Assembly (NCBI GenBank): GCA_036517655.1
Contig: DATDVE010000013.1
Span: 28,364 to 92,363 of the forward strand
DNA from: Minisyncoccota bacterium
GTDB taxonomy: Bacteria > Patescibacteriota > Minisyncoccia > Phycocordibacterales > DATDSR01
Direction of reading: 5' to 3'
Length of the DNA stretch: 64,000 bases
Position numbers and translations under genes: made by a program. Each line of letters begins with the position of its first letter. Positions within the stretch are counted from its first letter, which is position 1. Shown in pieces: positions 3,351-58,929 of this stretch. A model generated the notes under the pieces. It was not told the DNA's origin, did no database searches, and saw only the letters and a list, made by a program, of their open reading frames with translations.

Positions 3351-4285
3351 TGACAAACAAGCGAAGGACGAAACTTAGAATCGCTGTTTTATCCGGCGGA
3401 CCCGGAAGTGAGAGGGAGGTAAGTCTAGATTCTGGAAGGAATGTAGTTAGAGCGCTGGAAACTGGAGAAAACAAGTCTAGGTATATAGTAATACCTCTTA
3501 AGTTTCGCGATCCTCGATTACTTATGTCCAGACTCCAGCGCATCCAGCCTCATGTTGTTTTTCCAGTGTTGCACGGCGAGTTTGGCGAAGATGGCAAAGT
3601 TCAGGCTCTTCTGGAAGTATTCGGCAAGCCATATATCGGCTCGAGAGTGCTTGCCTCGGCGCTTGCGATGGATAAAGTGATTTCATCCAAACTTTTGCAC
3701 GCCGAGGGCGTGCGCGTTCCTAAGGAAATCACCCCGCGAAGCCAAGTAAATTTATTTGGCGGAGTGGGGTCATGTATTGTGAAGCCAAGGAACGGAGGCT
3801 CGAGCGTGGGGGTCTCGATAGTAAGAAATAAAAAAGACTTACAAAAAGCTATTAAGTTAGCCGAAAGAGAGGGCGAACCACTGGTTCAGGAATATCTATC
3901 GGGCAGAGAGTTCACTTGCGGGGTGCTCGAATTTGCGAAGGGCAAACCCAGCGCCCTGCCTGTGACAGAGATTATCCCCAAGAGTAAGTTCTTCGACTAC
4001 AAAGCCAAGTACATGAAGGGCGGTAGCGAAGAGATTACGCCGGCCGGTATATCGAGAAAGTTAACGGAAGAAATTCAACAGAGAGCTTTGCTTGCTCATA
4101 AAGTTTTGGCTTGCCGACATATATCTCGATCAGATTTTATATATTCGCGAGGCAAGCTCTATTATCTCGAGACCAACACCATGCCCGGCATGACGAGCAC
4201 GTCACTCATCCCGCAAGCCGTAAGAGCAGCCAAAATGACGATGCCCGAATTCTGCGATCGCTTAGTCCAAGCTACTCTTCAGTAA
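3350..4285 (+). CDS. ddl: D-alanine--D-alanine ligase (ATP-grasp)
   Basis: IAVLSGGPGSEREVSLDSG N-terminus plus ATP-grasp motifs. Start is probably the GTG at 3350 immediately after the upstream stop; the ORF-track start at 3287 overlaps the previous gene. Confidence 0.8.
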   Translation: MTNKRRTKLRIAVLSGGPGSEREVSLDSGRNVVRALETGENKSRYIVIPLKFRDPRLLMSRLQRIQPHVVFPVLHGEFGEDGKVQALLEVFGKPYIGSRVLASALAMDKVISSKLLHAEGVRVPKEITPRSQVNLFGGVGSCIVKPRNGGSSVGVSIVRNKKDLQKAIKLAEREGEPLVQEYLSGREFTCGVLEFAKGKPSALPVTEIIPKSKFFDYKAKYMKGGSEEITPAGISRKLTEEIQQRALLAHKVLACRHISRSDFIYSRGKLYYLETNTMPGMTSTSLIPQAVRAAKMTMPEFCDRLVQATLQ

Positions 4286-4341
4286 CTCACCCTACCCTCT
4301 CTTATAGATAAGAGAGGGCGAGACAGAGTCCGGGTGAGTTA
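4283..4341. mobile_element. MITE-like palindromic element copy 1
   Basis: TIR TAACTCACCC (4283-4292) / GGGTGAGTTA (4332-4341). Internal 24-bp palindrome CCCTCTCTTATAGATAAGAGAGGG. Its first TAA is the ddl stop codon. Confidence 0.8.
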
Positions 4342-5360: not shown

Positions 5361-5400
5361 CAAGTAAAATTAGTGAGCGATCGCTCACTAATTTTACTTG
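5361..5400. terminator. Perfect 40-bp palindrome (20+20) between convergent genes; bidirectional terminator or operator
   Basis: CAAGTAAAATTAGTGAGCGA|TCGCTCACTAATTTTACTTG centred on GCGATCGC. Confidence 0.5.
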
Positions 5401-5407
5401 ATTTATT

Positions 5408-5986
5408 TCACTTGAGATCGAACTCTTCTCGCAACCAGTGATCATTTTCTAGTTTGTCTACTTCTAAATAAAGAACTTCTCTTCCCAACTCGTATTTCCG
5501 TTTGATCAGAGTGATAACATCAGCGCAAGGGTATGGATGAACCCACGCACTTTTTTGTAACGACACAAAGCCGAGGGCAATTAAAGTTGAACGCAGCTCC
5601 TCACGTGTACTTTTTTTAAATTCCGGAATATCAAACATTACGACTCGCCAGTTTCCGTCCCAGTTCCAAGGTTTCTTAATAGAAAGAGTTTTTAACTGAT
5701 ATCCAGTTGCAAGTTTTTCCCCTTTGTCTGTCAGTTCGTATCCTGTGCGATTTCCTTTTTTCACCTTTTTCAACAGTCCTCGATCCACCAGATCTTGCGC
5801 GACACGGTGCATGTACCATTCTTTTCGCTTAGATTCATCTATTCCTAAAATTTGTAACGCGTTTGGAGCCATCACGGCCACAGCAAGGAAACCTACTACG
5901 CCAACAGAATATAGAATTGTTTGTGCAATTTTCCCGATTCTCTTATTGTTTCGATAATCCCTAAGTTCTTTCGAAGTAAACGCCAT
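5408..5986 (-). CDS. PaaX-like/Cas2-fold wHTH regulator with N-terminal TM helix
   Basis: WDGNWRVVMFDIPEFKKSTREELRSTLIALGFVSLQKSAWVHPYP resembles the PaaX C-terminal (Cas2-like) domain. TGYELTDKGEKL wHTH. Hydrophobic stretch near the N-terminus. Confidence 0.4.
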   Translation of the reverse strand: MAFTSKELRDYRNNKRIGKIAQTILYSVGVVGFLAVAVMAPNALQILGIDESKRKEWYMHRVAQDLVDRGLLKKVKKGNRTGYELTDKGEKLATGYQLKTLSIKKPWNWDGNWRVVMFDIPEFKKSTREELRSTLIALGFVSLQKSAWVHPYPCADVITLIKRKYELGREVLYLEVDKLENDHWLREEFDLK

Positions 5987-6000
5987 TATTACAGGTTATT

Positions 6001-6312
6001 TTGTATGGTAAAATTAGTATGCTATCGCTCTCTAATTTTACCATTGGCACTCTTAATTATCCAGATAGTATGGCGGAGGAGGTTCGGATAATGGATAACT
6101 TCGTGCAGCACCCAGACAATGAAGTGCAGCAGGCGATCACGAGACTCGCAGACGCACTCTGTTCGTGGGAGAGGAGTACAGGACTACAATCGGTGTTAAT
6201 TATCCGAGAACAAGGTGATCCAGGGTTCGTTTTTCGAGCAATGTCGGGCAAGCCAGGGATTCCCGATGACATAACGGATCAGCAGATGGTGGATACGATA
6301 CGCCGGGGATAG
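6001..6312 (+). CDS. Hypothetical small protein
   Basis: ORF only. Followed by hairpin GTACCCGGG...CCCGGGTAC (6328-6359). Confidence 0.3.
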   Translation: MYGKISMLSLSNFTIGTLNYPDSMAEEVRIMDNFVQHPDNEVQQAITRLADALCSWERSTGLQSVLIIREQGDPGFVFRAMSGKPGIPDDITDQQMVDTIRRG

Positions 6313-22122: not shown

Positions 22123-25100
22123 ATGACTGGCCCCACACCGGCTAATTTGCCAGAGAAGTCTGACGCTGCCAAGAGAGAAGAAGAAACTCTCAAGTTTTGG
22201 CAGGAAAACAAAATCTTCGAGAAGTCCCTCAAGTTAAGAGAGGGCAAAGAAGAGTTTGTCTTTTATGATGGCCCACCGTTTGCTACCGGCTTGCCCCACC
22301 ATGGCACATTACTTTCCTCTGTGGCTAAAGATGTTATTCCGCGATACAAAACAATGCGCGGGTTTTATGTACGCAGGCGCTGGGGCTGGGATACTCACGG
22401 TTTACCTATAGAGAATATGATCGAGAAGGATTTGGGGCTAAAGTCAAAAAAAGATATTTTGGCATTGGGGATTGAGCAGTTTAACGAAGCTTGCCGGGCT
22501 AAAGTTATGCAATACGCGCATGATTGGCAGAAATACGTTGATCGAGTTGGGCGCTGGGTTGAGTTTGAGAGCGCATACAAGACAATGGACGCAACGTACA
22601 CAGAGAGCGTGTGGTGGGCGCTCAAACAAATGCACGAGAAAGGCTTGCTATATGAGGGCAGGAAAGTGCTCATGTACTGTCCACATTGCGAGACGCCCCT
22701 GGCCAAAGCCGAGATTGCCATGGATAACTCATATAAAGATGTTACAGAAGAAGCCGTCACAGTGAAGTTTAGGTTGAAAATTGAAAATTGGAAATTGAAA
22801 ATTGCAGATACGCCCACGTATCTGCTGGCCTGGACTACCACGCCATGGACACTCCCTGCCAATGTGGCACTAGCTGTTGGGCCGGAGATCGAGTACTCGT
22901 TAGTAACTCACCCGGACTCCGTCTCGCCCTCTCTTATTAATAAGAGAGGGGTAGGGGTGAGTTATATTGTGGCTTCCGCATTAGTTGAGAAGCATTTTGG
23001 CAAAGATGCAAAAGTTGAGAAAACTTTTTTTGGCAAAGATTTAGAGGGGATAGAGTACGAGCCGCTCTTCCAGATTCCAGCTGTCCAGCAATCTGGTAAG
23101 CCAGCGTACTATGTTGCTCTGGCAGACTTTGTGAGTACAGAAGAAGGCACAGGCATTGTGCACACGGCTGTGATATATGGCGAGGACGACTACCAGCTAG
23201 GACTGAAAAATGATTTGCCCATGGTTCCCATATTAAATTCAAATGGCACTTACAATGATTTAGTGCCGGAGTTTTTGCAGGGGCAATACATCAAGAAAGC
23301 AGATAAGTTAGTGATAGAGGATCTCGAGAAGAGGGGTTTACTTTTCTCCAAAGCGCCAAACACGCATAGTTATCCGCATTGTTATCGTTGTGGCACGGCG
23401 CTCATATATAACGCGCTCTCCAGTTGGTTTGTCAACATTCAGAAGATCAAAGCGCGCATGATTGAGCTCAATGAGAAGATAAACTGGGTGCCAGAGCACC
23501 TGAAGCACGGCAGATTCTTGAACATTGTCGAGAACGCCCCCGATTGGACAATCTCGCGTAACAGATTCTGGGCAAGTCCATTGCCGATCTGGAAATGTAG
23601 TGAATGCGATTTAGTTAAAGTTGTGGGATCCCTCTCGGATTTGGAAGATAACCGCTCCACCAAACCGAATAAGTACATTTTGGTTCGTCATGGTCAGAGC
23701 GAAAAGAATAGTGGCAACGGAGAGCAGGGGGTCATCGCCACTACTCGCGAGGGTGATAGGTACCACTTAACAGAAGAAGGTCGAGAGCAGAGCAGGAAAA
23801 TTGCCTCTGAACTCAAATCACAAAACATTGACCTAATTGTGACCTCGCCTTATCTGCGCACTAAGGAGACGGCAGAGGCAATAGGAAGCCTTCTGGGCGT
23901 GAAGGTAGAAGAGGACGAAAGATTGAAGGAACTCCAGCTGGGTCAGACGCTCGAGGGCAAGACATGGGATGCTTTCAGAGAATTCGAGGGGAAGCGCGGT
24001 TTCGATGATCACTTAGGAGAGGGAGAGAGTTGTCGCGAGATGTTGGAACGTATGAGAGCCGTTGTTGTTGACCTAGATAAGAAGTACCAAGGGAAAAGCA
24101 TTGTTCTTGTGAGCCATGGTGATCCACTTTGGCTTCTGCGTTCTTATCTTATGAATCTCTCTCCTCAAGAAACACTCAAGCAGCATGATTCTCTGTATCC
24201 TAAGCGGGGGGAATTTTATGTTTTATCTCACAGCAATTACCCAAGGAACAAAAACATGGAGCTTGATTTTCACCGGCCCTACATTGATGCGATTAAGCTT
24301 GCTTGTTCATGTGGGGGCGAAATGGTGCGCATACCGGAGGTGGTTGATTGCTGGGTGGAATCTGGCTCGATGCCCTTCGCCGAGTATCATTACCCCACAG
24401 AAAACAAAAAAGAATTTGAAGGCCGATTTCCGGGAGACTACATAGCCGAGTACATTTCCCAGACCAGGACTTGGTTCTATTACATGCTCGCTGTTTCGAC
24501 AGCACTCTTTGATCGCGAGCCATTCAAGAATGTTGTAACAACTGGCAACTTACTTGCAGCGGATGGAGCCAAGATAAGTAAGTCTAAAGGCAACTATACG
24601 GACCCGCTTCTTCTGATTGATAAATATGGAGCAGATGCATATCGCTACTACGAAATGGTATCTGTTGTTATGCAGGGGGAAGATGCGCTCTTCAAAGACG
24701 ACGAGGTGAAAGAAGTGTATCAGCGCATGATAAACATTCTCTGGAATGTTGTTCAATTTTATACGACGTATAAAATTGAAGGGCAAAGTGCAAAGGTCAA
24801 AAATCAAAATTACACTTCAAAATTTGAAAATGTGCTGGATCGGTGGATACTCGCAAGATTGGCAGAACTCAATCGTGATGTGACAGAGAATCTAGATAAA
24901 TTTGATACAGTCAAAGCCGGTCGGCCAATCAGGGACTTTGTCACGGATCTATCAACCTGGTATATTCGCCGGTCGCGCGATCGCTTTAAATCAGATAATG
25001 CGCAAGATAGAGACAGTGCTATTGGGACGACTAGATTTGTGCTGCTGGAGCTCTCTAAACTAATAGCGCCGTTTATGCCATTCCTTGCCGAACAAGTATA

Positions 25101-25605
25101 CAAAGCCGTAGGTGGTGAACTCGAGTCAGTCCATCTGGAGAACTGGACTGAAATAAAGTCCGAGCCAGAGCATTCTGATGTTCTTGAGAACACCAGAATA
25201 ACGCGCGACATAGTGTCGCTAGCGCTCGAGGCACGCCAGAAGGAGGGGATCAAAGTGCGCCAGCCGCTTGCAAGTTTACAAACTAGCGCAAAGCTTGCTC
25301 CAGAATATCTGGAGTTGATAAAAGACGAGGTGAATGTCAAAGAAGTAAAGTTTGGCCCAGAGCTCCTTCTCGACACAAACATAACGCCTGAACTCGAACT
25401 CGAAGGCAAGATGCGCGATCTAGTAAGATCTGTGCAAGAGAAGCGCAAGGACTTGGGTCTCCAGCCCACTGATCAGGTCAATCTCACTCTCCCAACTTCA
25501 CTTGGGGATCTGATCCCTAAGTTTGAAAGCGAAATCAAAAAATCTGTGCATGCACAAAATGTGTCATTAGCAGACACACAAGAAATAAAGATAGAAAAAG
25601 TATGA
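22123..25605 (+). CDS. ileS: Isoleucine--tRNA ligase with in-frame MITE insertion and inserted histidine-phosphatase domain
   Basis: PFATGLPHHGT (HIGH), WTTTPWTLPAN, KISKSKGN (KMSKS). 1160 aa. MITE at 22904-22964. PGAM-like domain (LVRHGQSEKN, TSPYLRTKETAEAI, LVSHGDP) at about 23632-24255, between the CxxC and CxC zinc-finger halves. Confidence 0.9.
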   Translation: MTGPTPANLPEKSDAAKREEETLKFWQENKIFEKSLKLREGKEEFVFYDGPPFATGLPHHGTLLSSVAKDVIPRYKTMRGFYVRRRWGWDTHGLPIENMIEKDLGLKSKKDILALGIEQFNEACRAKVMQYAHDWQKYVDRVGRWVEFESAYKTMDATYTESVWWALKQMHEKGLLYEGRKVLMYCPHCETPLAKAEIAMDNSYKDVTEEAVTVKFRLKIENWKLKIADTPTYLLAWTTTPWTLPANVALAVGPEIEYSLVTHPDSVSPSLINKRGVGVSYIVASALVEKHFGKDAKVEKTFFGKDLEGIEYEPLFQIPAVQQSGKPAYYVALADFVSTEEGTGIVHTAVIYGEDDYQLGLKNDLPMVPILNSNGTYNDLVPEFLQGQYIKKADKLVIEDLEKRGLLFSKAPNTHSYPHCYRCGTALIYNALSSWFVNIQKIKARMIELNEKINWVPEHLKHGRFLNIVENAPDWTISRNRFWASPLPIWKCSECDLVKVVGSLSDLEDNRSTKPNKYILVRHGQSEKNSGNGEQGVIATTREGDRYHLTEEGREQSRKIASELKSQNIDLIVTSPYLRTKETAEAIGSLLGVKVEEDERLKELQLGQTLEGKTWDAFREFEGKRGFDDHLGEGESCREMLERMRAVVVDLDKKYQGKSIVLVSHGDPLWLLRSYLMNLSPQETLKQHDSLYPKRGEFYVLSHSNYPRNKNMELDFHRPYIDAIKLACSCGGEMVRIPEVVDCWVESGSMPFAEYHYPTENKKEFEGRFPGDYIAEYISQTRTWFYYMLAVSTALFDREPFKNVVTTGNLLAADGAKISKSKGNYTDPLLLIDKYGADAYRYYEMVSVVMQGEDALFKDDEVKEVYQRMINILWNVVQFYTTYKIEGQSAKVKNQNYTSKFENVLDRWILARLAELNRDVTENLDKFDTVKAGRPIRDFVTDLSTWYIRRSRDRFKSDNAQDRDSAIGTTRFVLLELSKLIAPFMPFLAEQVYKAVGGELESVHLENWTEIKSEPEHSDVLENTRITRDIVSLALEARQKEGIKVRQPLASLQTSAKLAPEYLELIKDEVNVKEVKFGPELLLDTNITPELELEGKMRDLVRSVQEKRKDLGLQPTDQVNLTLPTSLGDLIPKFESEIKKSVHAQNVSLADTQEIKIEKV
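22904..22964. mobile_element. MITE-like palindromic element copy 2, in frame within ileS
   Basis: TAACTCACCC...GGGGTGAGTTA with internal CCCTCTCTTATTAATAAGAGAGGG. Translated as VTHPDSVSPSLINKRGVGVSY inside IleRS. Confidence 0.8.
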
Positions 25606-30848: not shown

Positions 30849-32269
30849 TGTCCGATAAGTTCTACATCACAACTACTACGCCATATGTAAACGGCGACCC
30901 GCATATTGGGTTCGCGCGTGAGATTGTTGTAGCAGACGCTATCGCTCGCTTCAGGAAAATTATGGGCGACGAAGTGCGCTTCAACACTGGCACTGACGAG
31001 CACGGACAGAAAATATTTGAGAAGGCTCGAGAAGAAGGTCTAGAGCCCAGAGATTATGTAGATAAACTTGCGCCCAGATTCGCGGCGCTCAAGAGTCCGC
31101 TTGATCTCTCGTTTACTGATTTCTCGCGCACATCAAGTGAGCAACACAAGGTGGCTGCACAGGAGATGTGGAAGCGGTGCAATAAGAACGGTTATATCTA
31201 TAAAGGCAAGCACAAAATTAAATATTGCATAGGCTGTGAGCTAGAGAAGACAGATTCAGAACTTGACAGTGACAAGTGCCCAATTCATCCCAATCGCGAA
31301 TTAGAAAAAAGAGAAGAAGAAAACTACTTTTTCAAGTTTTCTAAACTTGCTCCCAAATTGCTTGAGCTGTACAAAGATAATCCAGAATTTGTGAGGCCAG
31401 ATTTCAGGATGACAGAGATCAGAACTTTCGTAGAGCGAGGCTTGCAAGATTTCTCTATCTCGCGACTTAAGTCAAAAATGAGTTGGGGAGTGCCAGTGCC
31501 CGACGATCCAGAACATGTTATGTACGTATGGTTCGACGCCCTCGTAATATATATTTCTCCCTTGGGTTGGCCAGAAGATGAGAATATGGGTGGCTGGTGG
31601 CCCGGCATGCAAGTCTGTGGCAAGGACAATCTTCGCCAGCAGACGGCCATGTGGCAAGCTATGCTCATAGCAGCCGGACTACCTGCTTCAACCCAGGTGC
31701 TTGTTTTTGGTTTTATAACTGGCGATGGGGGTATCAAAATGAGTAAGAGCTTGGGTAATGTTGTTGATCCCGTGGCTTTGGTAAATGATTGGGGGACAGA
31801 TGCTGTTCGCTATTTCCTGTTGCGCGAGCTTAGTTTGTGGGAAGATAGCCCGTTTACGCCCGAGCGCTTCAAAGAAGCATATAACGCTAACCTGGCAAAC
31901 GGCCTGGGGAATCTTGCGTCGAGAATTATGAAAATGGCGGAGGTAAATCTAGATACGCCGGTTAAAATTCCCGATAACTCTCTACCAGACGATTATAAAA
32001 AGTTAATGGACGAGTTTGGATTGCAGAAGGCAGCTGATTATATCTGGACTGAAATTGGCAGACTAGACACTCTCATCCAATCAAGTGAGCCATTCAAGTT
32101 AGTTAAGAGCGACCCAGAGAAGGGAAAAGAATTAATTCAAGAGTTGGTGGTGGACCTCTATACAATTGCCAGCATGTTAAACCCGTTCATACCAGAAACA
32201 GCGCAAGCGATCAAAGACGCAGTGAAGGGAAACAAGAGTTTTACTAAGCCACTTTTCCCTCGTAAATAA
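30848..32269 (+). CDS. metG: Methionine--tRNA ligase (short form)
   Basis: PYVNGDPHIGFA (HIGH region) and KMSKSLGN. The stop TAA is the first 3 nt of the composite element. Confidence 0.9.
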   Translation: MSDKFYITTTTPYVNGDPHIGFAREIVVADAIARFRKIMGDEVRFNTGTDEHGQKIFEKAREEGLEPRDYVDKLAPRFAALKSPLDLSFTDFSRTSSEQHKVAAQEMWKRCNKNGYIYKGKHKIKYCIGCELEKTDSELDSDKCPIHPNRELEKREEENYFFKFSKLAPKLLELYKDNPEFVRPDFRMTEIRTFVERGLQDFSISRLKSKMSWGVPVPDDPEHVMYVWFDALVIYISPLGWPEDENMGGWWPGMQVCGKDNLRQQTAMWQAMLIAAGLPASTQVLVFGFITGDGGIKMSKSLGNVVDPVALVNDWGTDAVRYFLLRELSLWEDSPFTPERFKEAYNANLANGLGNLASRIMKMAEVNLDTPVKIPDNSLPDDYKKLMDEFGLQKAADYIWTEIGRLDTLIQSSEPFKLVKSDPEKGKELIQELVVDLYTIASMLNPFIPETAQAIKDAVKGNKSFTKPLFPRK

Positions 32270-32716
32270 CTCACCCGGACTAAAGTCTCGACCTCTCTTA
32301 TAAACAAGAGAGGTAAAAAACAGAATCGTGAACAAATTTTTGGCGAACAATAAAATTCTGAAGAACCGCAGAAGGGAATTGCGCAGGAATCAGACTGAGG
32401 CCGAAAAGATTATGTGGGCATACCTTAGGGGTAAACAAATTGGGGTCCGTTTCTTGCGTCAATACAGTCTGGGTCCTTACATTATTGACTTCTATTGTCC
32501 TAGGATCAAACTTGCTGTAGAGTTAGATGGTCCCGTCCACGATTTACCAGTAAGTCAGGAGTATGATAGAGAAAGAGGATTATATTTAGGTAGTCTAGGG
32601 GTGAGGACAGTTAGGTTTAAGAATGCCACAGTAATGAATAATCCAACTAAAATTACAAATAAACTTAAACCTCTCTTATCTATAAGAGAGGTCGAGGCTT
32701 AGGCCCGGGTGAGTTA
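32267..32716. mobile_element. Composite TA-flanked element carrying a DUF559 endonuclease gene (probable full-length relative of the MITEs)
   Basis: Left end: TAACTCACCC+GGACTAAAGTCTCG+hairpin ACCTCTCTTATAAACAAGAGAGGT. Right end: hairpin ACCTCTCTTATCTATAAGAGAGGT+CGAGGCTTAGGCC+CGGGTGAGTTA. Ends are about 85% identical to the MITE ends. Confidence 0.75.
32328..32702 (+). CDS. DUF559 (Vsr-like PD-(D/E)xK) endonuclease-domain protein
   Basis: RRELRRNQTEAEKIMWAYLR...FLRQYSLGPYIIDFYCP..LAVELDG.VH...D.R...L...G..RF matches the DUF559 consensus. The C-terminal 10 aa are encoded by the right-end hairpin. Confidence 0.75.
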   Translation: MNKFLANNKILKNRRRELRRNQTEAEKIMWAYLRGKQIGVRFLRQYSLGPYIIDFYCPRIKLAVELDGPVHDLPVSQEYDRERGLYLGSLGVRTVRFKNATVMNNPTKITNKLKPLLSIREVEA

Positions 32717-34527: not shown

Positions 34528-34725
34528 ATGCAATGCTATTTCTGTACAAATAACGCTACCCACATAGATTACAAGGACCTGGAGACTCTCAAGAAGTTTC
34601 TAGATCAATACGCGCGAATCTCTCGCAAGCGCACAACCGGAGTCTGTTCCCTCCACCAGAGGAAACTAGCCCGAGCAATCAAACACGCCCGCTTCATGGC
34701 ACTCCTACCATTTGTGGCATCATAA
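34528..34725 (+). CDS. rpsR: 30S ribosomal protein S18
   Basis: CYFCTNN...IDYKD...ISRKRTTGV...QRKLARAIKHARFMALLPF. Confidence 0.88.
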   Translation: MQCYFCTNNATHIDYKDLETLKKFLDQYARISRKRTTGVCSLHQRKLARAIKHARFMALLPFVAS

Positions 34726-34781
34726 CTCACCCAACCCTCTCTCATAGATAAGAGAGGGCGAGACGGAGTCCGGGTGAGTTA
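34723..34781. mobile_element. MITE-like palindromic element copy 4 between convergent rpsR and efp
   Basis: TAACTCACCC (34723-34732), CCCTCTCTCATAGATAAGAGAGGG, GGGTGAGTTA (34772-34781). Its TAA is the rpsR stop and its TTA is the efp stop on the minus strand. Confidence 0.8.
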
Positions 34782-46443: not shown

Positions 46444-47688
46444 ATGATTTACAAGAAACGCATTCTAGTACTCGGTGGCGGTTATGGCGGCACTTACACC
46501 TTCAAACATCTCCACAAAAGTTTTAAGAATAATTCAGGTGTTGAGCTACGTTTAATTAGCAAGACTAATTATTTTGTCTCCACGCCCTTCTTGCACGAAG
46601 TGGCCACGGGCAACATTGACCCCGAGCATGTGGCCGAACCTCTGCGCAAGATTTTCCCCGGACCGGAAGAATTCCAGCTTGCCGATGTTAAAGCTATTTC
46701 GTTAAAAGATAAAAAAGTAGAAACAAATGAAGGAGTAATAGCTTACGATTATCTTATTATGGCTTTGGGCGCTGAGACTAATTATAGGAACACGCCAGGT
46801 GCGCGCGAACACACGCTTGCCCTCAAAACACTCGAAGATGCTATCAAACTCAAGAACCATTTTATCTCAACGTTTGATCAAGCTGCTAATCTGCATAACG
46901 AGGAAGAAATAAGAAAGAAATTGCGTTTTGTAGTGATTGGGGGCGGGGCAACGGGAGTAGAACTTGTTTCCGAAATGTCTGATTTCCTATACTCTTCGCT
47001 GGGGACGTATTACACCAAAAATTTCATAGCACATATTTCTATTATTTTAGTGCATGCAGGGGACGACCTACTTCCCAACTTTAGCCACAATATCAGGCTT
47101 GCCAGCAAAAAAGTATTGCGCAAAAAGAAAATAGAAATCAAATTCGGTCTGCAAGTGATCGAAGTGCGCCCCGGAGCTTTGGTGTTAAATAACGGCGAAG
47201 TGATAGAATCAGACACAATTATTTGGGCCGCTGGCGTAAGTCCCTCCAGTGTGTCAGTTACCCCGAGCGTAGAAAGAGAGAGGGGCAGAATAATTGTGAA
47301 TCAATTTTTCCAGATCCCATCTTATCCAGAGGTGTTTGTGCTCGGCGACCAGGCGGCTTTTAGGAATGTTGGTGATAGCGCGGCTCTACCCATGCTCGCT
47401 CAAGTGGCACACAAACAAGCTGACGCAGTGGCTCGCAATGTAGCGAGAATAGTAGAAGGCAAATTACCCATGCCATATACCTACAAGCACTTGGGCGACT
47501 TAGTAAGCTTGGGTGAGTGGGTGGCGGCGGGCGAACTATTTGGCATCAAGATATTTGGCCACGTGGCTTGGTTCTTCTGGCGCGGAGTCTACCTCTCTAA
47601 ACTCCTGTCTCCCACAAAAAAAGTGAAGGTTCTCCTAGATTGGCTCCTAAATCTTTTCGCCCCTCGCGACATCTCCGCCATCAACTAA
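46444..47688 (+). CDS. ndh: Type II NADH dehydrogenase (NDH-2)/FAD-dependent pyridine nucleotide-disulfide oxidoreductase
   Basis: Two Rossmann GxGxxG motifs (ILVLGGGYGG; VVIGGGATGVE). 414 aa. Confidence 0.75.
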   Translation: MIYKKRILVLGGGYGGTYTFKHLHKSFKNNSGVELRLISKTNYFVSTPFLHEVATGNIDPEHVAEPLRKIFPGPEEFQLADVKAISLKDKKVETNEGVIAYDYLIMALGAETNYRNTPGAREHTLALKTLEDAIKLKNHFISTFDQAANLHNEEEIRKKLRFVVIGGGATGVELVSEMSDFLYSSLGTYYTKNFIAHISIILVHAGDDLLPNFSHNIRLASKKVLRKKKIEIKFGLQVIEVRPGALVLNNGEVIESDTIIWAAGVSPSSVSVTPSVERERGRIIVNQFFQIPSYPEVFVLGDQAAFRNVGDSAALPMLAQVAHKQADAVARNVARIVEGKLPMPYTYKHLGDLVSLGEWVAAGELFGIKIFGHVAWFFWRGVYLSKLLSPTKKVKVLLDWLLNLFAPRDISAIN

Positions 47689-48417
47689 CTTGGAGGCCTT
47701 GCCTCCAAGTTATAAGGGTGATGATTAGATGTCTCCAATAGCAAAACTATCTAATTTTTTTGATTTTTTTACTTCTAACATGAGTTGCAAAGAATCTAAA
47801 GCAAATTTCCTGTAGTCATTCGTGTTCTTAAACTGGTCAAGTATGATTTTTTTCTCACAAATAGACAAGGTACTTTCTTTCATATATTCGTCCCAACTAC
47901 TTCGCACCAACTTAGAGGCCTTGCCTCCAAGTTGGTGAACTTCTGGGTTCAGGTTCACATAAGCACTACAGTGCAGCAGGTCGTCATTGCTGAGTATTCG
48001 TCTTGCTTTAAATTTTCCTTGGTACAAAGACCCAGATCGTTTATATCTATTATTTATGTAATAGGCAAAACCTCCAGATAGTCTTCCAAGGAACATACTG
48101 ATACCGTTTTCCACTAGTTGTTTCAATATCAGATGGAAATGATTCGGATTTAAGCAATACGCGACTATTTCCACGAGTTTTTTCTTGGGTCGTTTTTTAT
48201 CAGGTTTAGCAAAAGACTGTTCATAAATGCTACCTATTGGCTCAACAACGTTAAAAAGTATTAGGCTTTCCACAAACCGATTTGAATCTAAAGGATCTCG
48301 AGTGATATCGCACCCTTCAGCCCCGCGATTACAAATGTGGTAGTACTCATCGTGAGCGAAGGGCTCCTTTCGTGATGACATTGGTTTAATCTAACACTTG
48401 GAGGCAAGGCCTCCAAG
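47689..48417. mobile_element. IS200/IS605-like or REPtron-like element: Y1 (HUH) transposase flanked by inverted REP hairpins
   Basis: Hairpins CTTGGAGGC-CTT-GCCTCCAAG (47689-47709) and CTTGGAGGC-AAG-GCCTCCAAG (48397-48417) in opposite orientation. A third copy (47911-47931) lies inside the transposase ORF. Confidence 0.65.
47725..48381 (-). CDS. Y1 HUH transposase (IS200/IS605 TnpA or RAYT)
   Basis: YYHICNRG (~YHV.NRG), NPNHFHLIL (HUH motif), SLYQGKF (catalytic Tyr region). Confidence 0.7.
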   Translation of the reverse strand: MSSRKEPFAHDEYYHICNRGAEGCDITRDPLDSNRFVESLILFNVVEPIGSIYEQSFAKPDKKRPKKKLVEIVAYCLNPNHFHLILKQLVENGISMFLGRLSGGFAYYINNRYKRSGSLYQGKFKARRILSNDDLLHCSAYVNLNPEVHQLGGKASKLVRSSWDEYMKESTLSICEKKIILDQFKNTNDYRKFALDSLQLMLEVKKSKKLDSFAIGDI

Positions 48418-48476
48418 TGAGCTATGCACATGTTGTCCACAGCAACTTGCATGTCGCTAGATGATAAACTAACTGT

Positions 48477-56259: not shown

Positions 56260-56333
56260 ACACAGAAATATCAGGATACTACGATATCAAGATATTGAGA
56301 TACTAATAAAAACTGCGATACTTAGATACTATG
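56260..56333. repeat. Left arm of about 75-nt GATACT-rich inverted repeat flanking the four-helix-bundle gene
   Basis: GATACTACGATATCAAGATATTGAGATACTAATAAAAACTGCGATACTTAGATACT pairs with the reverse complement of 56721-56815. Confidence 0.6.
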
Positions 56334-56720
56334 GCGGAGAAGAAAAGATATATACAGCTAAAAGATCTAGAGGTTTATAAACACGCAAGAGAGCTCTCGA
56401 GACTTGGTTGGGAGATGTATAAATCCTTCGACTGGCAGACAAAGAAGGTGATCGGAGATCAATTTATCACAGCAACTGATTCTGTGGGAGCTAATATTGC
56501 AGAAGGCTACAGCCGTTACCATTATCTAGACAGAATAAAGTTTTTCTACAATTCCCGAGGCTCGCTTGCCGAGGCGGCTGACCACTGGTTGGCCATTCTC
56601 CATGAACGAGGTAAAATAGATGATAAGCAACACGAAGCATTTGCTTTGATTGCCAGCAGGGTGTCGTTAAAACTCCAGAACTTCATCAATGCAATATATA
56701 AAACCAAAAACAGCGAGTAA
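56331..56720 (+). CDS. Four-helix-bundle protein (family usually found in 23S rRNA intervening sequences)
   Basis: EVYKHARELSRLGWEMYKSF...IGDQFITATDSVGANIAEGYSRYHY...YNSRGSLAEAADHWLAILHERG matches the TIGR02436-type four-helix-bundle family. Confidence 0.75.
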   Translation: MAEKKRYIQLKDLEVYKHARELSRLGWEMYKSFDWQTKKVIGDQFITATDSVGANIAEGYSRYHYLDRIKFFYNSRGSLAEAADHWLAILHERGKIDDKQHEAFALIASRVSLKLQNFINAIYKTKNSE

Positions 56721-58929
56721 AGTATCTAAGTATCGTAGTATCCCAGTATCTATTAGTATCGGTTTTATTTTCCTAGTATCTATAAGTATCTTGATATCAA
56801 CTAATATCGCCTCCATCGTCTCCGCTTTCACTATTCAAAAGACCCTGCCCACTCAACCCGACCTGCAAAACGGCCTAGTGGGCCACTGGACATTTGATGG
56901 CAAGGATATTTCCGGTACCAGCGCCACAGACCGAAGCGGCAACAACAACACCGGCACCCTCACCAACGGCCCACTTGCCACTGTCGGCAAAATCGGCCAG
57001 GCCCTGAACTTTGATGGGAGTGATGATTATGTAAGTATTGCGGACAATAATTCTCTTGACCTTACATCTGCGGTCACTATTAGCTTATGGTTTAAAGCTG
57101 ATGGGTGGACTGCCGCATACCAAGGGCTCGTTGCGAAAAGAATTGGCAATTCGTCCAATTACGGTTTGAATGTAAGTAGCACAGGAAGTGCATTTCAGTG
57201 GTTCTTCCATGACGGGGATTATCAGATAGTTGATATAAATGCAAGTACCGTTTCTACAGGCCAGTGGCATCATTTTGTGGGGACTTTTAGTGATACTGGC
57301 GATGTAGTGGGGTCTATCTATATTGATGGAACTTTGAAAAAGACAGAAACATTTACGGCTAGAAATCTTGTCGCAAATACCAATACTCTTCGTATCGGTG
57401 AGAGTAATAATCCGGCAAGTGGCCCCGAACATTTCAATGGCTCCGTCGACGACGTGCGCGTGTACAGCCGGGCGCTTAGTGCGGCCGAGATTACTAAACT
57501 GTACAAACTCGGGGCCACCAGTCACGTCAATGTCACCCTCCCCACCCAACCCGACCTGCAATCTGGTCTGGTCGGCCACTGGACGTTTGACGGCAAAGAT
57601 ATGGGCCCGAATGTACTTGATAAATCAGGCAACGCAAACCACGGCAATGCTGTTTACGGCACCACTGGCAATACGAGCACGACTACAGTCGCGGGCCGGA
57701 TCGGCCAGGCACTTGTCTTTGATGGATTTCCTGTGCTCAATGGATTAGCTGACAGCGTTCTTCTCCCTGGTGTTTCAGTGACGGGGACCAGCCATAGCGT
57801 TTCCATGTGGCTCAATGTTACCGGGCTTCCAGCCGACACATACGGTACCCTTTTCAGTGATGCGTTTGGGAACACTGGACTTTATTATTATAACGATGGG
57901 GCGACAGAAAAGATTACTTATTTCTATAGTCTTGCCGATAATTTCGCCTCAACTACAATAAAAGTTGATAACAAGTGGCACCATTTTGCAGCTGTTTCCG
58001 GTACTGGCGGAGTTACTTTCTATGTCGACGGAGTTAGAAGTGGCGCAGTGTTTGGTCAAGTCCCGGATTATTCGGCAACAAGAATCGGAGGTGACATTTT
58101 TAACGATGAGTTTAAGGGTGCCCTCGACGACATCCGTCTCTACAATCGTCCACTTAGCGCGGCAGAAGTAACTAAACTATACAAACTCGGGGCCACCAGC
58201 CACGTCAACACAACCCTCCGCACCCAACCCGATCTGCAAAATGGCCTAGTGGGCCACTGGACATTCGACGGAAAGGACGTGGGGCCGAATGTACTTGATA
58301 AATCAGGCAACGCAAACCACGGCAATGCTGTTTACGGCACCACTGGCAATACGAGCACGACTACTGTGCCAGGCCGCATCGGCCAAGCTTTGAGCTTTGA
58401 TGGCGTGAACGACTATGTTCTGGTAAATAATAGTGCAAGTCTCACTATGACCACTGGTGATATAAGTATGGGAGGGTGGTTATATCGAAATGCGTCATTC
58501 TCGGTCAATCCCAATATCTTCCACAAAAAGAGTGGTACAAATGATATTAATAGTGGATACGCTATGGGAGTATTAAGAAGCACCCATTCATTGGGTGGCC
58601 ACAAGCCAGCTTTCAGTTTCGCCGATGGTACAAATGCCGCTTATTTCTACCCCACATCAATAACATACGCAACACCTTTCAGAAAGTGGGTCCATGCTTT
58701 CGTAGTTTTCAATTCTACTACCGATACGGCGCAAATATATATCAACGGACAACCAGTCGATACAACTAACGTTTATGCCAGCGCGATTGGTTCAGTAACT
58801 AACACCACAGCGCCAAATATAGGCAGGATATCCACATCCTACTTTGGTGGAAATATTGATGATTATCGCGTCTACAGCCGGGCGCTTAGCGCGGGGGAGG
58901 TGAGGAAATTGTATGAGATGGGAAGATAG
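56689..58929 (+). CDS. Secreted protein with three tandem LamG/concanavalin-A-like lectin domains
   Basis: Each about 228-aa repeat begins TQPDLQ.GLVGHWTFDGKD and ends DD.R.Y.RALSA.E..KLY.LG. Start uncertain: the N-terminal hydrophobic segment is encoded by the right inverted repeat and overlaps the four-helix-bundle gene. Confidence 0.65.
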   Translation: MQYIKPKTASKVSKYRSIPVSISIGFIFLVSISILISTNIASIVSAFTIQKTLPTQPDLQNGLVGHWTFDGKDISGTSATDRSGNNNTGTLTNGPLATVGKIGQALNFDGSDDYVSIADNNSLDLTSAVTISLWFKADGWTAAYQGLVAKRIGNSSNYGLNVSSTGSAFQWFFHDGDYQIVDINASTVSTGQWHHFVGTFSDTGDVVGSIYIDGTLKKTETFTARNLVANTNTLRIGESNNPASGPEHFNGSVDDVRVYSRALSAAEITKLYKLGATSHVNVTLPTQPDLQSGLVGHWTFDGKDMGPNVLDKSGNANHGNAVYGTTGNTSTTTVAGRIGQALVFDGFPVLNGLADSVLLPGVSVTGTSHSVSMWLNVTGLPADTYGTLFSDAFGNTGLYYYNDGATEKITYFYSLADNFASTTIKVDNKWHHFAAVSGTGGVTFYVDGVRSGAVFGQVPDYSATRIGGDIFNDEFKGALDDIRLYNRPLSAAEVTKLYKLGATSHVNTTLRTQPDLQNGLVGHWTFDGKDVGPNVLDKSGNANHGNAVYGTTGNTSTTTVPGRIGQALSFDGVNDYVLVNNSASLTMTTGDISMGGWLYRNASFSVNPNIFHKKSGTNDINSGYAMGVLRSTHSLGGHKPAFSFADGTNAAYFYPTSITYATPFRKWVHAFVVFNSTTDTAQIYINGQPVDTTNVYASAIGSVTNTTAPNIGRISTSYFGGNIDDYRVYSRALSAGEVRKLYEMGR
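56721..56815. repeat. Right arm of GATACT-rich inverted repeat
   Basis: AGTATCTAAGTATCGTAGTATCCCAGTATCTATTAGTATCGG...CTAGTATCTATAAGTATCTTGATATC. Confidence 0.6.

Follow-up and report, generated by a model that had tools for sequence, protein, structure and literature searches.

We analyzed a 64-kb window of DNA from a Candidatus Paceibacterota metagenome-assembled genome (MAG) of the candidate phyla radiation (CPR) and focused on an element of 450 bases at positions 32267 to 32716, between the two housekeeping genes metG and tatD (the window is the whole stretch of 64,000 nt). The element is real: it consists of a 49-nt imperfect inverted repeat around a single open reading frame (ORF) that encodes a DUF559 protein of 124 amino acids (aa). 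The reading towards which we lean, tentatively, is that it is a 450-bp non-autonomous cassette moved in trans, with a conserved nuclease as cargo that probably acts on the repeats.

The element opens with a terminal block, TAACTCACCCGG (32267–32278, plus strand, as are all parts of the element), whose TAA is the metG stop codon. It continues with an arm, ACTAAAGTCTCG (32279–32290), which forms a small internal stem-loop in the single-stranded DNA fold, and with a 24-nt pyrimidine/purine hairpin, ACCTCTCTTATAAACAAGAGAGGT (32291–32314). The gene of the DUF559 nuclease (Vsr-fold PD-(D/E)xK, 124 aa, 32328–32702) follows with a GTG start after a 13-nt spacer. At the other end, a second 24-nt hairpin, ACCTCTCTTATCTATAAGAGAGGT (32669–32692), encodes the C-terminal PLLSIREV, the right arm, CGAGGCTTAGGC (32693–32704), holds the TAG stop of the DUF559 ORF, and the right terminal block, CCGGGTGAGTTA (32705–32716), ends on the A of the tatD ATG. 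In a repeat search, the two ends came out as a single 49-nt inverted repeat with 88% complementarity and arms 354 nt apart; it was the longest inverted repeat within 3 kb across the window. An earlier note, made from the sequence alone, had described a terminal inverted repeat (TIR), an arm and a hairpin mirrored around DUF559 as sole cargo, and our direct reading and the 49-nt repeat bear this out: the insertion is discrete, bounded exactly by the inverted repeat, and contains no other ORF. Two further details of that note also agree with the ORF coordinates. The metG ORF ends at 32269, on the TAA of the element, and tatD starts at 32716, on its final A; the right hairpin and arm supply the codons for PLLSIREVEA, the last ten DUF559 residues. 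The terminal repeats thus enclose a passenger gene and no transposase, as in a mobile insertion cassette (MIC).

The repeats of the window are not due to chance. The hairpin pattern CCTCTCTN8AGAGAGG was found five times where 0.2 occurrences were expected, a count reached in none of 100 shuffles, and GGGTGAGTTA was found nine times at up to one mismatch (2.7 expected). Every unit in the window folded into a long hairpin, with z-scores between −5.8 and −7.1, and an Rfam scan of the window matched no family. In the hairpin at 32291–32314 and in all its copies, the 5' arm ACCTCTCTTA and the 3' arm AAGAGAGGT form an anti-Shine–Dalgarno/Shine–Dalgarno-like pair: the 5' arm resembles the 3' end of 16S rRNA, ACCTCCTTA, and the 3' arm resembles AAGGAGGT. 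The left hairpin has its Shine–Dalgarno-like 3' arm 13 nt upstream of the GTG and could sequester the ribosome-binding site of the DUF559 gene.

The element is an insertion between metG and tatD, because syntenic relatives have empty sites. In three relatives (MetRS 74–80% identical) that share the gene order glyS, AI-2E transporter gene, metG, tatD, rpsF, ssb, rpsR and efp, the metG stop lies 1–12 nt from the tatD ATG (junctions GAGTAGTATGATC, GACTGATATGGTT and AATTAAAAAAGATTGAATATGATC), and these sites contain neither the repeat nor a DUF559 gene. Two homologues at 60–62% protein identity end in PLLFIREVETKSG and PLLSIREAETKSE, which are the translated hairpin, arm and terminal block. One of them (L004, 62%) has a 46-nt inverted repeat, TAACTCACCCGGACTTCGTCTCGACCTCTCTTATAAACAAGAGAGGT, with one mismatch and of the same sequence in an unrelated context; the other (L006, 60%) has the same ends and lies after metG with a different downstream neighbor. 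The ends of the window element and of L004 are identical at about 44 of 48 positions despite saturated synonymous sites in the ORF (dS about 1.5), which argues that the ends are functional cis elements. These comparisons indicate that the DUF559 gene and its ends travel and evolve together. The idea of a cargo element, which the earlier note had made dependent on the DUF559 genes of relatives being tied to these repeats, therefore stands, as the copies at 60–62% identity keep their ends, one of them at another location. The same note had offered homing as an option. Classical homing, in which a gene interrupts its own recognition site, is unlikely, since complete hairpins stand on both sides of the gene and the empty metG–tatD sites are free of repeats.

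The 124-aa ORF matched PF04480 (DUF559) with E = 2.9e-28 and 98.4 bits against a curated cutoff of 20.6, and the structural-genomics protein 3HRL was a relative at the sequence level (E = 6e-14). We built an AlphaFold model from 56 homologues (pLDDT 82, pTM 0.75), for which Foldseek returned 3HRL (E = 3e-7), 3R3P (E = 1e-3), and 1CW0 and 1VSR (probability 0.94–0.99); the best matches were 3HRL, the catalytic domain of the homing endonuclease I-Bth0305I, and Vsr. According to the model, the ORF product has a Vsr-type restriction-endonuclease-like fold. The putative active-site residues D54, E65, D67 and H71, acidic or histidine, are invariant across the 56 sequences, so the structure prediction that the earlier note had proposed as a check came out in its favor on both fold and conserved residues. 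The cassette gene resembles I-Bth0305I, an EDxHD/Vsr-like homing endonuclease, in catalytic fold (TM-score 0.63 normalized to the query and 0.79 to the target) and in its selfish genetic context (PMC3239194), but it is free-standing rather than located in an intron or intein, has no extra DNA-binding domain and leaves its putative flanking targets intact. The dN/dS ratio among cassette copies was 0.07–0.31 in all measurably diverged pairs, and the enzyme is thus kept functional by purifying selection; the near-identical pair L033/L040, with four differences and a dN/dS of 0.80, carries no information in this respect. A defense-system assignment was not adopted, as PADLOC gave merely weak partial matches (DpdF and mREase_II). 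At four loci (L010, L012, L016 and L073), the DUF559 ORF lacks a stop and reads through into a downstream host gene for a PilW-like pilin, a T4SS pilin or a LigD 3'-phosphoesterase, giving fusion ORFs of 300–400 aa. Long "DUF559" ORFs of about that size had been considered as transposase fusions, and this was rejected in favor of read-through into the pilin or LigD-phosphoesterase genes.

The association between the nuclease gene and the hairpin was assessed in a genome scan with one genome per species, which yielded 80 loci; 76 related DUF559 loci were used for the hairpin counts. The data are MAGs and metagenome contigs, in which repeats are often collapsed, and the two "arrangement types" of the loci are a descriptive grouping. 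The loci span Desulfobacterota, Nitrospirota, Saccharibacteria, other Patescibacteria, Myxococcota and others. Most ORFs share a flank theme of TAAC(T/C)CCCCC, a hairpin of the form CCCCCTCTTA-nnn-TAAGAGGGGG or CCTCCCCTTA-nnn-TAAGGGGAGG, and then GGGGGAGTTA; the hairpin sequence occurs as the variants CCTCTCTTAT, CCCCCTCTTA and CCTCCCCTTA, and the DUF559 stop usually lies inside the hairpin across phyla. A pyrimidine/purine hairpin was present within 90 nt upstream of the start for 66 of 76 DUF559 ORFs compared to seven of 247 control ORFs from the same loci (Fisher p ~1e-49). At the stop, the corresponding numbers were 54 of 76 and nine of 247 (Fisher p ~1e-34), and the density of the hairpin motif was 19-fold higher at DUF559 ORF boundaries. 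Across the loci compared, the nuclease-plus-hairpin arrangement is specific to DUF559 genes in several phyla. The hairpin remains with the gene under any outer ends, whether TAAC-type, ISL3-like or none, and so the nuclease would act on the hairpin/triplex unit. The pairing explains an earlier finding that DUF559 proteins are 14-fold enriched among genes overlapped by inverted repeats, which had been flagged without explanation (PMC9881135). A search of the literature on DUF559, on the repeat sequences, on homing by Vsr-like enzymes and on BoxC gave no account of such an arrangement; as a precedent, a repeated segment in Legionella holds a transposase and a DUF559 gene (PMC12308824).

Signatures of insertion were found in a sister lineage of cassettes. 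Two copies in one MAG (L033 and L040) form a 477-bp unit that is 98% identical and has sharp ends, with unrelated sequence outside. The sister unit is bounded by the outer inverted repeat G(A/G)TTC(A/T)TCCGGCTTTT.TGTGGGTGC and is surrounded in these two copies by perfect 8-bp direct repeats, CGAATTTG and ATAATTCA. Perfect 8-bp duplications were also found in L013, L019, L056 and L061 (AAGTATCA, TTAAAAAG, AATTATAA and AAAAATCA), making six sister-lineage copies in total. An ORF-less derivative of 228 bp (L039:352–579), located in the same MAG as full cassette copies, retains both outer ends, the inner repeat units and a duplication matching at seven of eight positions. The MAGs VGRY01 and MGQQ01 are examples of genomes with recently moved cassettes.

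The sister ends, GGTTCTTCCGG... and GGCTCTTCAGG..., resemble the inverted repeats of the ISL3 family, and one right end reads GGCTCTTCAGGG. Elements of this family have inverted repeats starting GGCTCTTCG, generate 8-bp duplications and are known to mobilize miniature inverted-repeat transposable elements (MITEs; PMC6305408, PMC11448079). The assignment of the sister lineage to ISL3 relies on the length of the duplication and on ends that match in part, and 8-bp duplications with GGCTCTTC-type inverted repeats occur in the sister lineage only, the terminus of the window element being TAACTCACCCGG. Taken together, the TIR, the 8-bp duplication and the ISL3-like ends point to a DDE transposase supplied in trans. 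A role of the nuclease in moving the element is unsupported; mobilization in trans, which the earlier note listed merely as one option, fits the sister-lineage signature. Trans-mobilized MITEs and MICs, such as those derived from ISL3 in Microcystis (PMC11448079), are similar in their terminal inverted repeats, lack of an internal transposase and ORF-less derivatives, and the sister lineage shares with the ISL3-derived MITEs the 8-bp duplications and GG(C/T)TCTTC-type ends. The cassettes differ from them in that their cargo is the same nuclease across phyla, under purifying selection, and in that an internal hairpin is tied to the gene whatever the outer ends.

Short units without an ORF belong to the window family as well. 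Three solo units in the window share the terminal blocks and the hairpin, each having one hairpin and one arm (no strand is assigned to them). A 59-nt unit (terminal block, hairpin, arm, terminal block; 4283–4341) lies between ddl and a pfkB-family kinase gene, with its TAA serving as the ddl stop. Another, of 61 nt (22904–22964), lies in frame inside ileS and encodes THPDSVSPSLINKRGVGVSY, which the earlier note had missed, and a third, of 59 nt (34723–34781), lies between rpsR and efp and supplies stop codons for both convergent genes. In their length of 59–61 nt, lack of an ORF, terminal repeats of 10–12 nt and several copies, the solo units resemble MITEs. An exact-pattern scan of metagenome data yielded 24 further loci, none encoding DUF559 and none with any other cargo. 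Most were one-arm units and a few were half units. Two (L108 and L114) were two-arm units, 70–72 nt long, with an arm on each side of the hairpin between the terminal blocks; they correspond to the composite element without its ORF. Four half units (L097, L109, L110 and L119) were considered as possible carriers of other cargo and rejected, as they lead into a tatD fragment, rplL or terminators and have no matching far end. The proposal of the earlier note that the MITEs are internal-deletion derivatives fits the two-arm units and the 228-bp derivative of the sister lineage.

The unit inside ileS (22123–25605) adds about 20 residues to an essential aminoacyl-tRNA synthetase. IleRS orthologues at 61–69% identity share the codon position of the insert, its arm lying on one side or the other, and more distant orthologues are without it; the DNA of the unit is almost identical in three species, whereas flanking codons differ at synonymous sites. 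Precomputed annotation also places an inserted histidine-phosphatase domain (PF00300) in IleRS of the window and of all listed relatives. Two relatives have the rpsR–efp unit with its arm on the opposite side, and a third lacks the unit; it too is nearly identical between species despite synonymous differences in flanking codons. A flip in orientation of these two units was considered, and alternative arm loss from a two-arm ancestor, or conversion, explains them better; under either of these, old copies of the units are kept alike. Nearly all copies of the window family have TA at both ends, which could be part of the repeat. A model with TA duplication would leave the tatD ATG intact in the ancestral sequence. 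The short palindromic elements of Rickettsia and the Correia elements are similar in that they supply stops or are tolerated in frame, as is the ileS copy, have TA at both ends and have no known transposase; the window family differs in having a protein-coding member.

The terminal block, which the earlier note treated as a TIR, is a mirror copy of the purine arm of the hairpin (e.g., AAGAGAGGGG-TA-GGGGTGAGTTA), a feature that note had missed; therefore, the units share the three-block design of the BoxC/PIT/TM triplex repeats. Scanned generically for these three blocks (pyrimidine arm, purine arm complementary to it, mirror block), the 64 kb gave 10 matches, all of them at the three solo units or the two ends of the element, and 10 shuffles gave none; the units are thus predicted to be capable of forming triplexes. 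BoxC/PIT/TMECO repeats consist of pyrimidine and purine arms complementary to each other, then a short TA/TTA linker and a mirror purine block GGGTGAG, so that E. coli BoxC (...AGAGGGTTAGGGTGAGGGG) and the window units (...AGAGGGGTAGGGGTGAGTTA) follow the same design, and both are dispersed, highly conserved, often found as inverted pairs and have no known enzyme. References for these intrastrand-triplex motifs are Hoyne and Maher (2000) and Holder et al. (2015; PMC4666352). The window units differ in being AT-richer (CCCTCTCTTAT...) and in having an extra arm and a TAAC...GTTA outer stem, and no link has been made from BoxC to a protein or to terminal repeats with target duplications. In E. 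coli, the motif has the consensus CCCTCGCCCCTTTGGGGAGAGGGTTAGGGTGAGGGG; MG1655 contains 23 copies, and 3610 were counted over 262 genomes. TMECO motifs form triplexes in vitro and are associated with rearrangements and genome instability (PMC4666352). Salmonella is reported to lack TMECO. The strict TMECO pattern, CCCTCNCCC N3-6 GGGNGAGGG N3 GGGNGAGGG (PMC4666352), had no match in the window, one in an E. coli control locus and five in four DUF559 loci (L039, L046, L054 and L086).

A DUF559 gene is also found next to BoxC in E. coli. The K-12 gene ycjD (L130, 1351204–1351830) ends, as ...RRSPSP*, in a BoxC-like unit, and its start lies inside the 3' arm of a hairpin with a 17-bp stem; within about 200 bp downstream there are a duplicated 3' fragment of ycjD and TMECO #9 (~170 bp away). 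Among 5426 complete E. coli genomes, ycjD was present in 3378, with an adjacent BoxC segment in 3374, and absent from 38%. A comparison of filled and empty ycjD sites was uninformative, as an efflux operon between sapF and fabI replaces ycjD in the negative strains. In an evenly spaced sample of E. coli, BoxC-like places numbered 13–29 (median 20) in ycjD-positive and 1–22 (median 7) in ycjD-negative genomes (Mann–Whitney p 1e-8), a contrast that is confounded by phylogroup. The ycjD-negative O157 strains still hold 12 BoxC-like copies. A link between DUF559 and BoxC was not found in the literature searched.

Apart from the element, three other small genes of the window each lie in an inverted repeat of their own, bringing the total to four. 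A RAYT-like Y1 gene (47755–48381, minus strand) matched Pfam Y1_Tnp with E = 1.5e-6 and NCBIfam REP_Tyr_transpos with E = 4e-9, the latter below cutoff. It is flanked by its own hairpin, ACTTGGAGGC...GCCTCCAAGT, at 47686–47712 and 48394–48420, with a third copy inside the ORF (47911–47931). In relatives, it lies between glyS and the AI-2E transporter gene; this different placement means that it has moved. It was considered as the mobilizer of the element and rejected, as its hairpins are unrelated to those of the element and no link was found. A 192-aa PaaX_M gene with a Cas2-like domain (5408–5986, minus strand) is bracketed by the 34-nt palindrome GTAAAATTAGTGAGCGATCGCTCACTAATTTTAC (5364–5397 and 6008–6041), of which the left copy is perfect and the right differs at four positions; a homologue is found at a different position in the relative L090. 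The third gene encodes a 129-aa 23S rRNA-intervening-sequence protein (PF05635, E = 1e-20; 56331–56720, plus strand) within a 32-nt inverted repeat (56299–56330 and 56729–56760).

Under the trans-mobilization reading that we tentatively prefer, the cassette would be moved rarely and as a unit by a transposase encoded elsewhere that recognizes the outer ends. This transposase would be ISL3-like for the sister lineage; no type is proposed for the TA-flanked family of the window. The nuclease would be retained cargo whose most likely substrates, for binding or cutting, are the palindromic or structured repeat units; a homodimeric Vsr-fold enzyme acting on a palindrome of 22–24 bp is plausible. 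Cuts at the units would lead to repair and gene conversion among copies, by which the family would be homogenized and the gene occasionally copied; we propose that old copies are near-identical because of this. Several points weigh against such a reading. The population of the window (P0001, 11 contigs) showed one context only and no visible recent movement. Recent copies at multiple loci were also sought in P0087 (nine contigs), which was likewise confined to a single context. At any reasonable boundary, the window family has TA and no 8-bp duplication, and its terminus, TAAC-TCACCCGG, resembles the sister terminus, GGT-TCATCCGG, only weakly. No transposase with matching ends turned up in either lineage, where the loci were not searched for one and the window is partly annotated; a scan of viral contigs and plasmids gave no useful match. 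Activity of the nuclease on the repeats is something we infer from their association. Finally, terminal repeats, duplications, a single conserved ORF and deleted derivatives are normally read as the marks of an autonomous element, which favors the nuclease as mobilizer.

We consider it improbable that the element is autonomous in this way, with the DUF559 nuclease cutting the structured ends and/or the target and host repair or replication finishing the reaction. The solo units would then be non-autonomous derivatives, and a small PD-(D/E)xK nuclease alone would constitute a transposase or homing class. It would fit this that DUF559 is the only ORF in elements with terminal repeats, target duplications and internally deleted derivatives, that the ORF is under purifying selection in every lineage, that hairpin and gene are linked across phyla and under differing outer ends, and that the fold matches that of a true homing endonuclease, I-Bth0305I. 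PD-(D/E)xK nucleases hydrolyze DNA, however, and TnsA of Tn7 needs TnsB; no PD-(D/E)xK nuclease is known to perform strand transfer unaided. Moreover, both flanking hairpins have stayed whole, which would not be the case for a homing target; copies are few, and the paralogues within CPR genomes are old (65–75% nt identity). Gene tables list no transposase beside any copy, and no transposase or integrase has been reported near the TMECO motifs of E. coli (PMC4666352), which again suits an autonomous element, whereas an 8-bp duplication of constant length, combined with ISL3-like ends, is what a DDE transposase is known to leave (PMC6305408, PMC11448079).

A partnership like that of REPINs and RAYTs, in which a resident, mostly vertically inherited DUF559 nuclease preserves the units and now and then copies them, through cleavage and gene conversion, without true transposition of its gene, is unlikely but deserves consideration. 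The gene would then be bracketed by units for the same reason as RAYT genes are by REPs, and the layout is indeed that of a REPtron (RAYT with REP/REPIN), in which two oppositely oriented copies of a hairpin repeat, dispersed elsewhere as short units, enclose the gene of a small nuclease. As with REPtrons, copies are long-lived: units persist at orthologous sites across species with nearly identical DNA, and there are one or few gene copies per genome at loci that are stable within populations. The higher number of BoxC-like places in ycjD-positive E. coli points in the same direction, although phylogroup confounds it and the O157 strains keep their copies without ycjD, and the RAYT-like gene with its own hairpins indicates that this lifestyle exists in the genome of the window. 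In contrast to a REPtron, however, the cassette has a PD-(D/E)xK (Vsr) rather than an HUH/Y1 fold and repeats with a triplex-type mirror block, the DUF559 gene is itself an insertion at metG–tatD, the gene-bearing unit of the sister lineage moves with target duplications, and the link between nuclease and units is read from sequence. It is hardly credible that nothing here is mobile, the hairpins being a Shine–Dalgarno-sequestering stem and a terminator of a housekeeping Vsr-type repair gene and the dispersed copies unrelated terminators. The Shine–Dalgarno-like 3' arm upstream of the start, one terminator-like site overlapping the right hairpin on the minus strand, and the position of units at gene ends, where they supply stop codons, would agree with such expression signals. 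Such an account already fails on the insertion polymorphism and on the target duplications: relatives have empty sites, the same ends occur in another context, and the sister lineage has sharp ends and perfect 8-bp duplications. In addition, one unit lies in frame inside ileS, sequence is conserved across phyla beyond structure, the coding strand has no T-run after the hairpins, and PIT/BoxC units have been reported to lack promoter and terminator activity (PMC4666352).

Catalogues of BoxC/PIT/TM repeats go back to the 1990s and cover E. coli and more than 260 genomes; the repeats have been given no enzyme, origin or mechanism of spreading (PMC4666352). The very large DUF559 family has no known function. 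Our finding ties it to these repeats through a physical association that is specific and spans phyla and, in one lineage, through classical signatures of insertion. The pairing offers the BoxC/triplex repeats a candidate protein partner. A bolder version, which we regard as speculative and rather unlikely, is that DUF559 proteins are the missing cognate enzymes of the BoxC/PIT/TM repeats, including YcjD for the 23 BoxC copies of K-12, and form a mobile or self-maintaining system of wide distribution based on a PD-(D/E)xK protein of about 125 aa rather than on a DDE, HUH or serine enzyme. If true, the gene-bearing cassettes of 450–480 bp would be its autonomous members and the smallest protein-coding transposable units known. 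The question of nuclease and repeat is directly testable in E. coli via ycjD and its adjacent BoxC units. For the CPR, the finding means that compact genomes tolerate such units at start as well as stop codons, and in ileS even within the reading frame.

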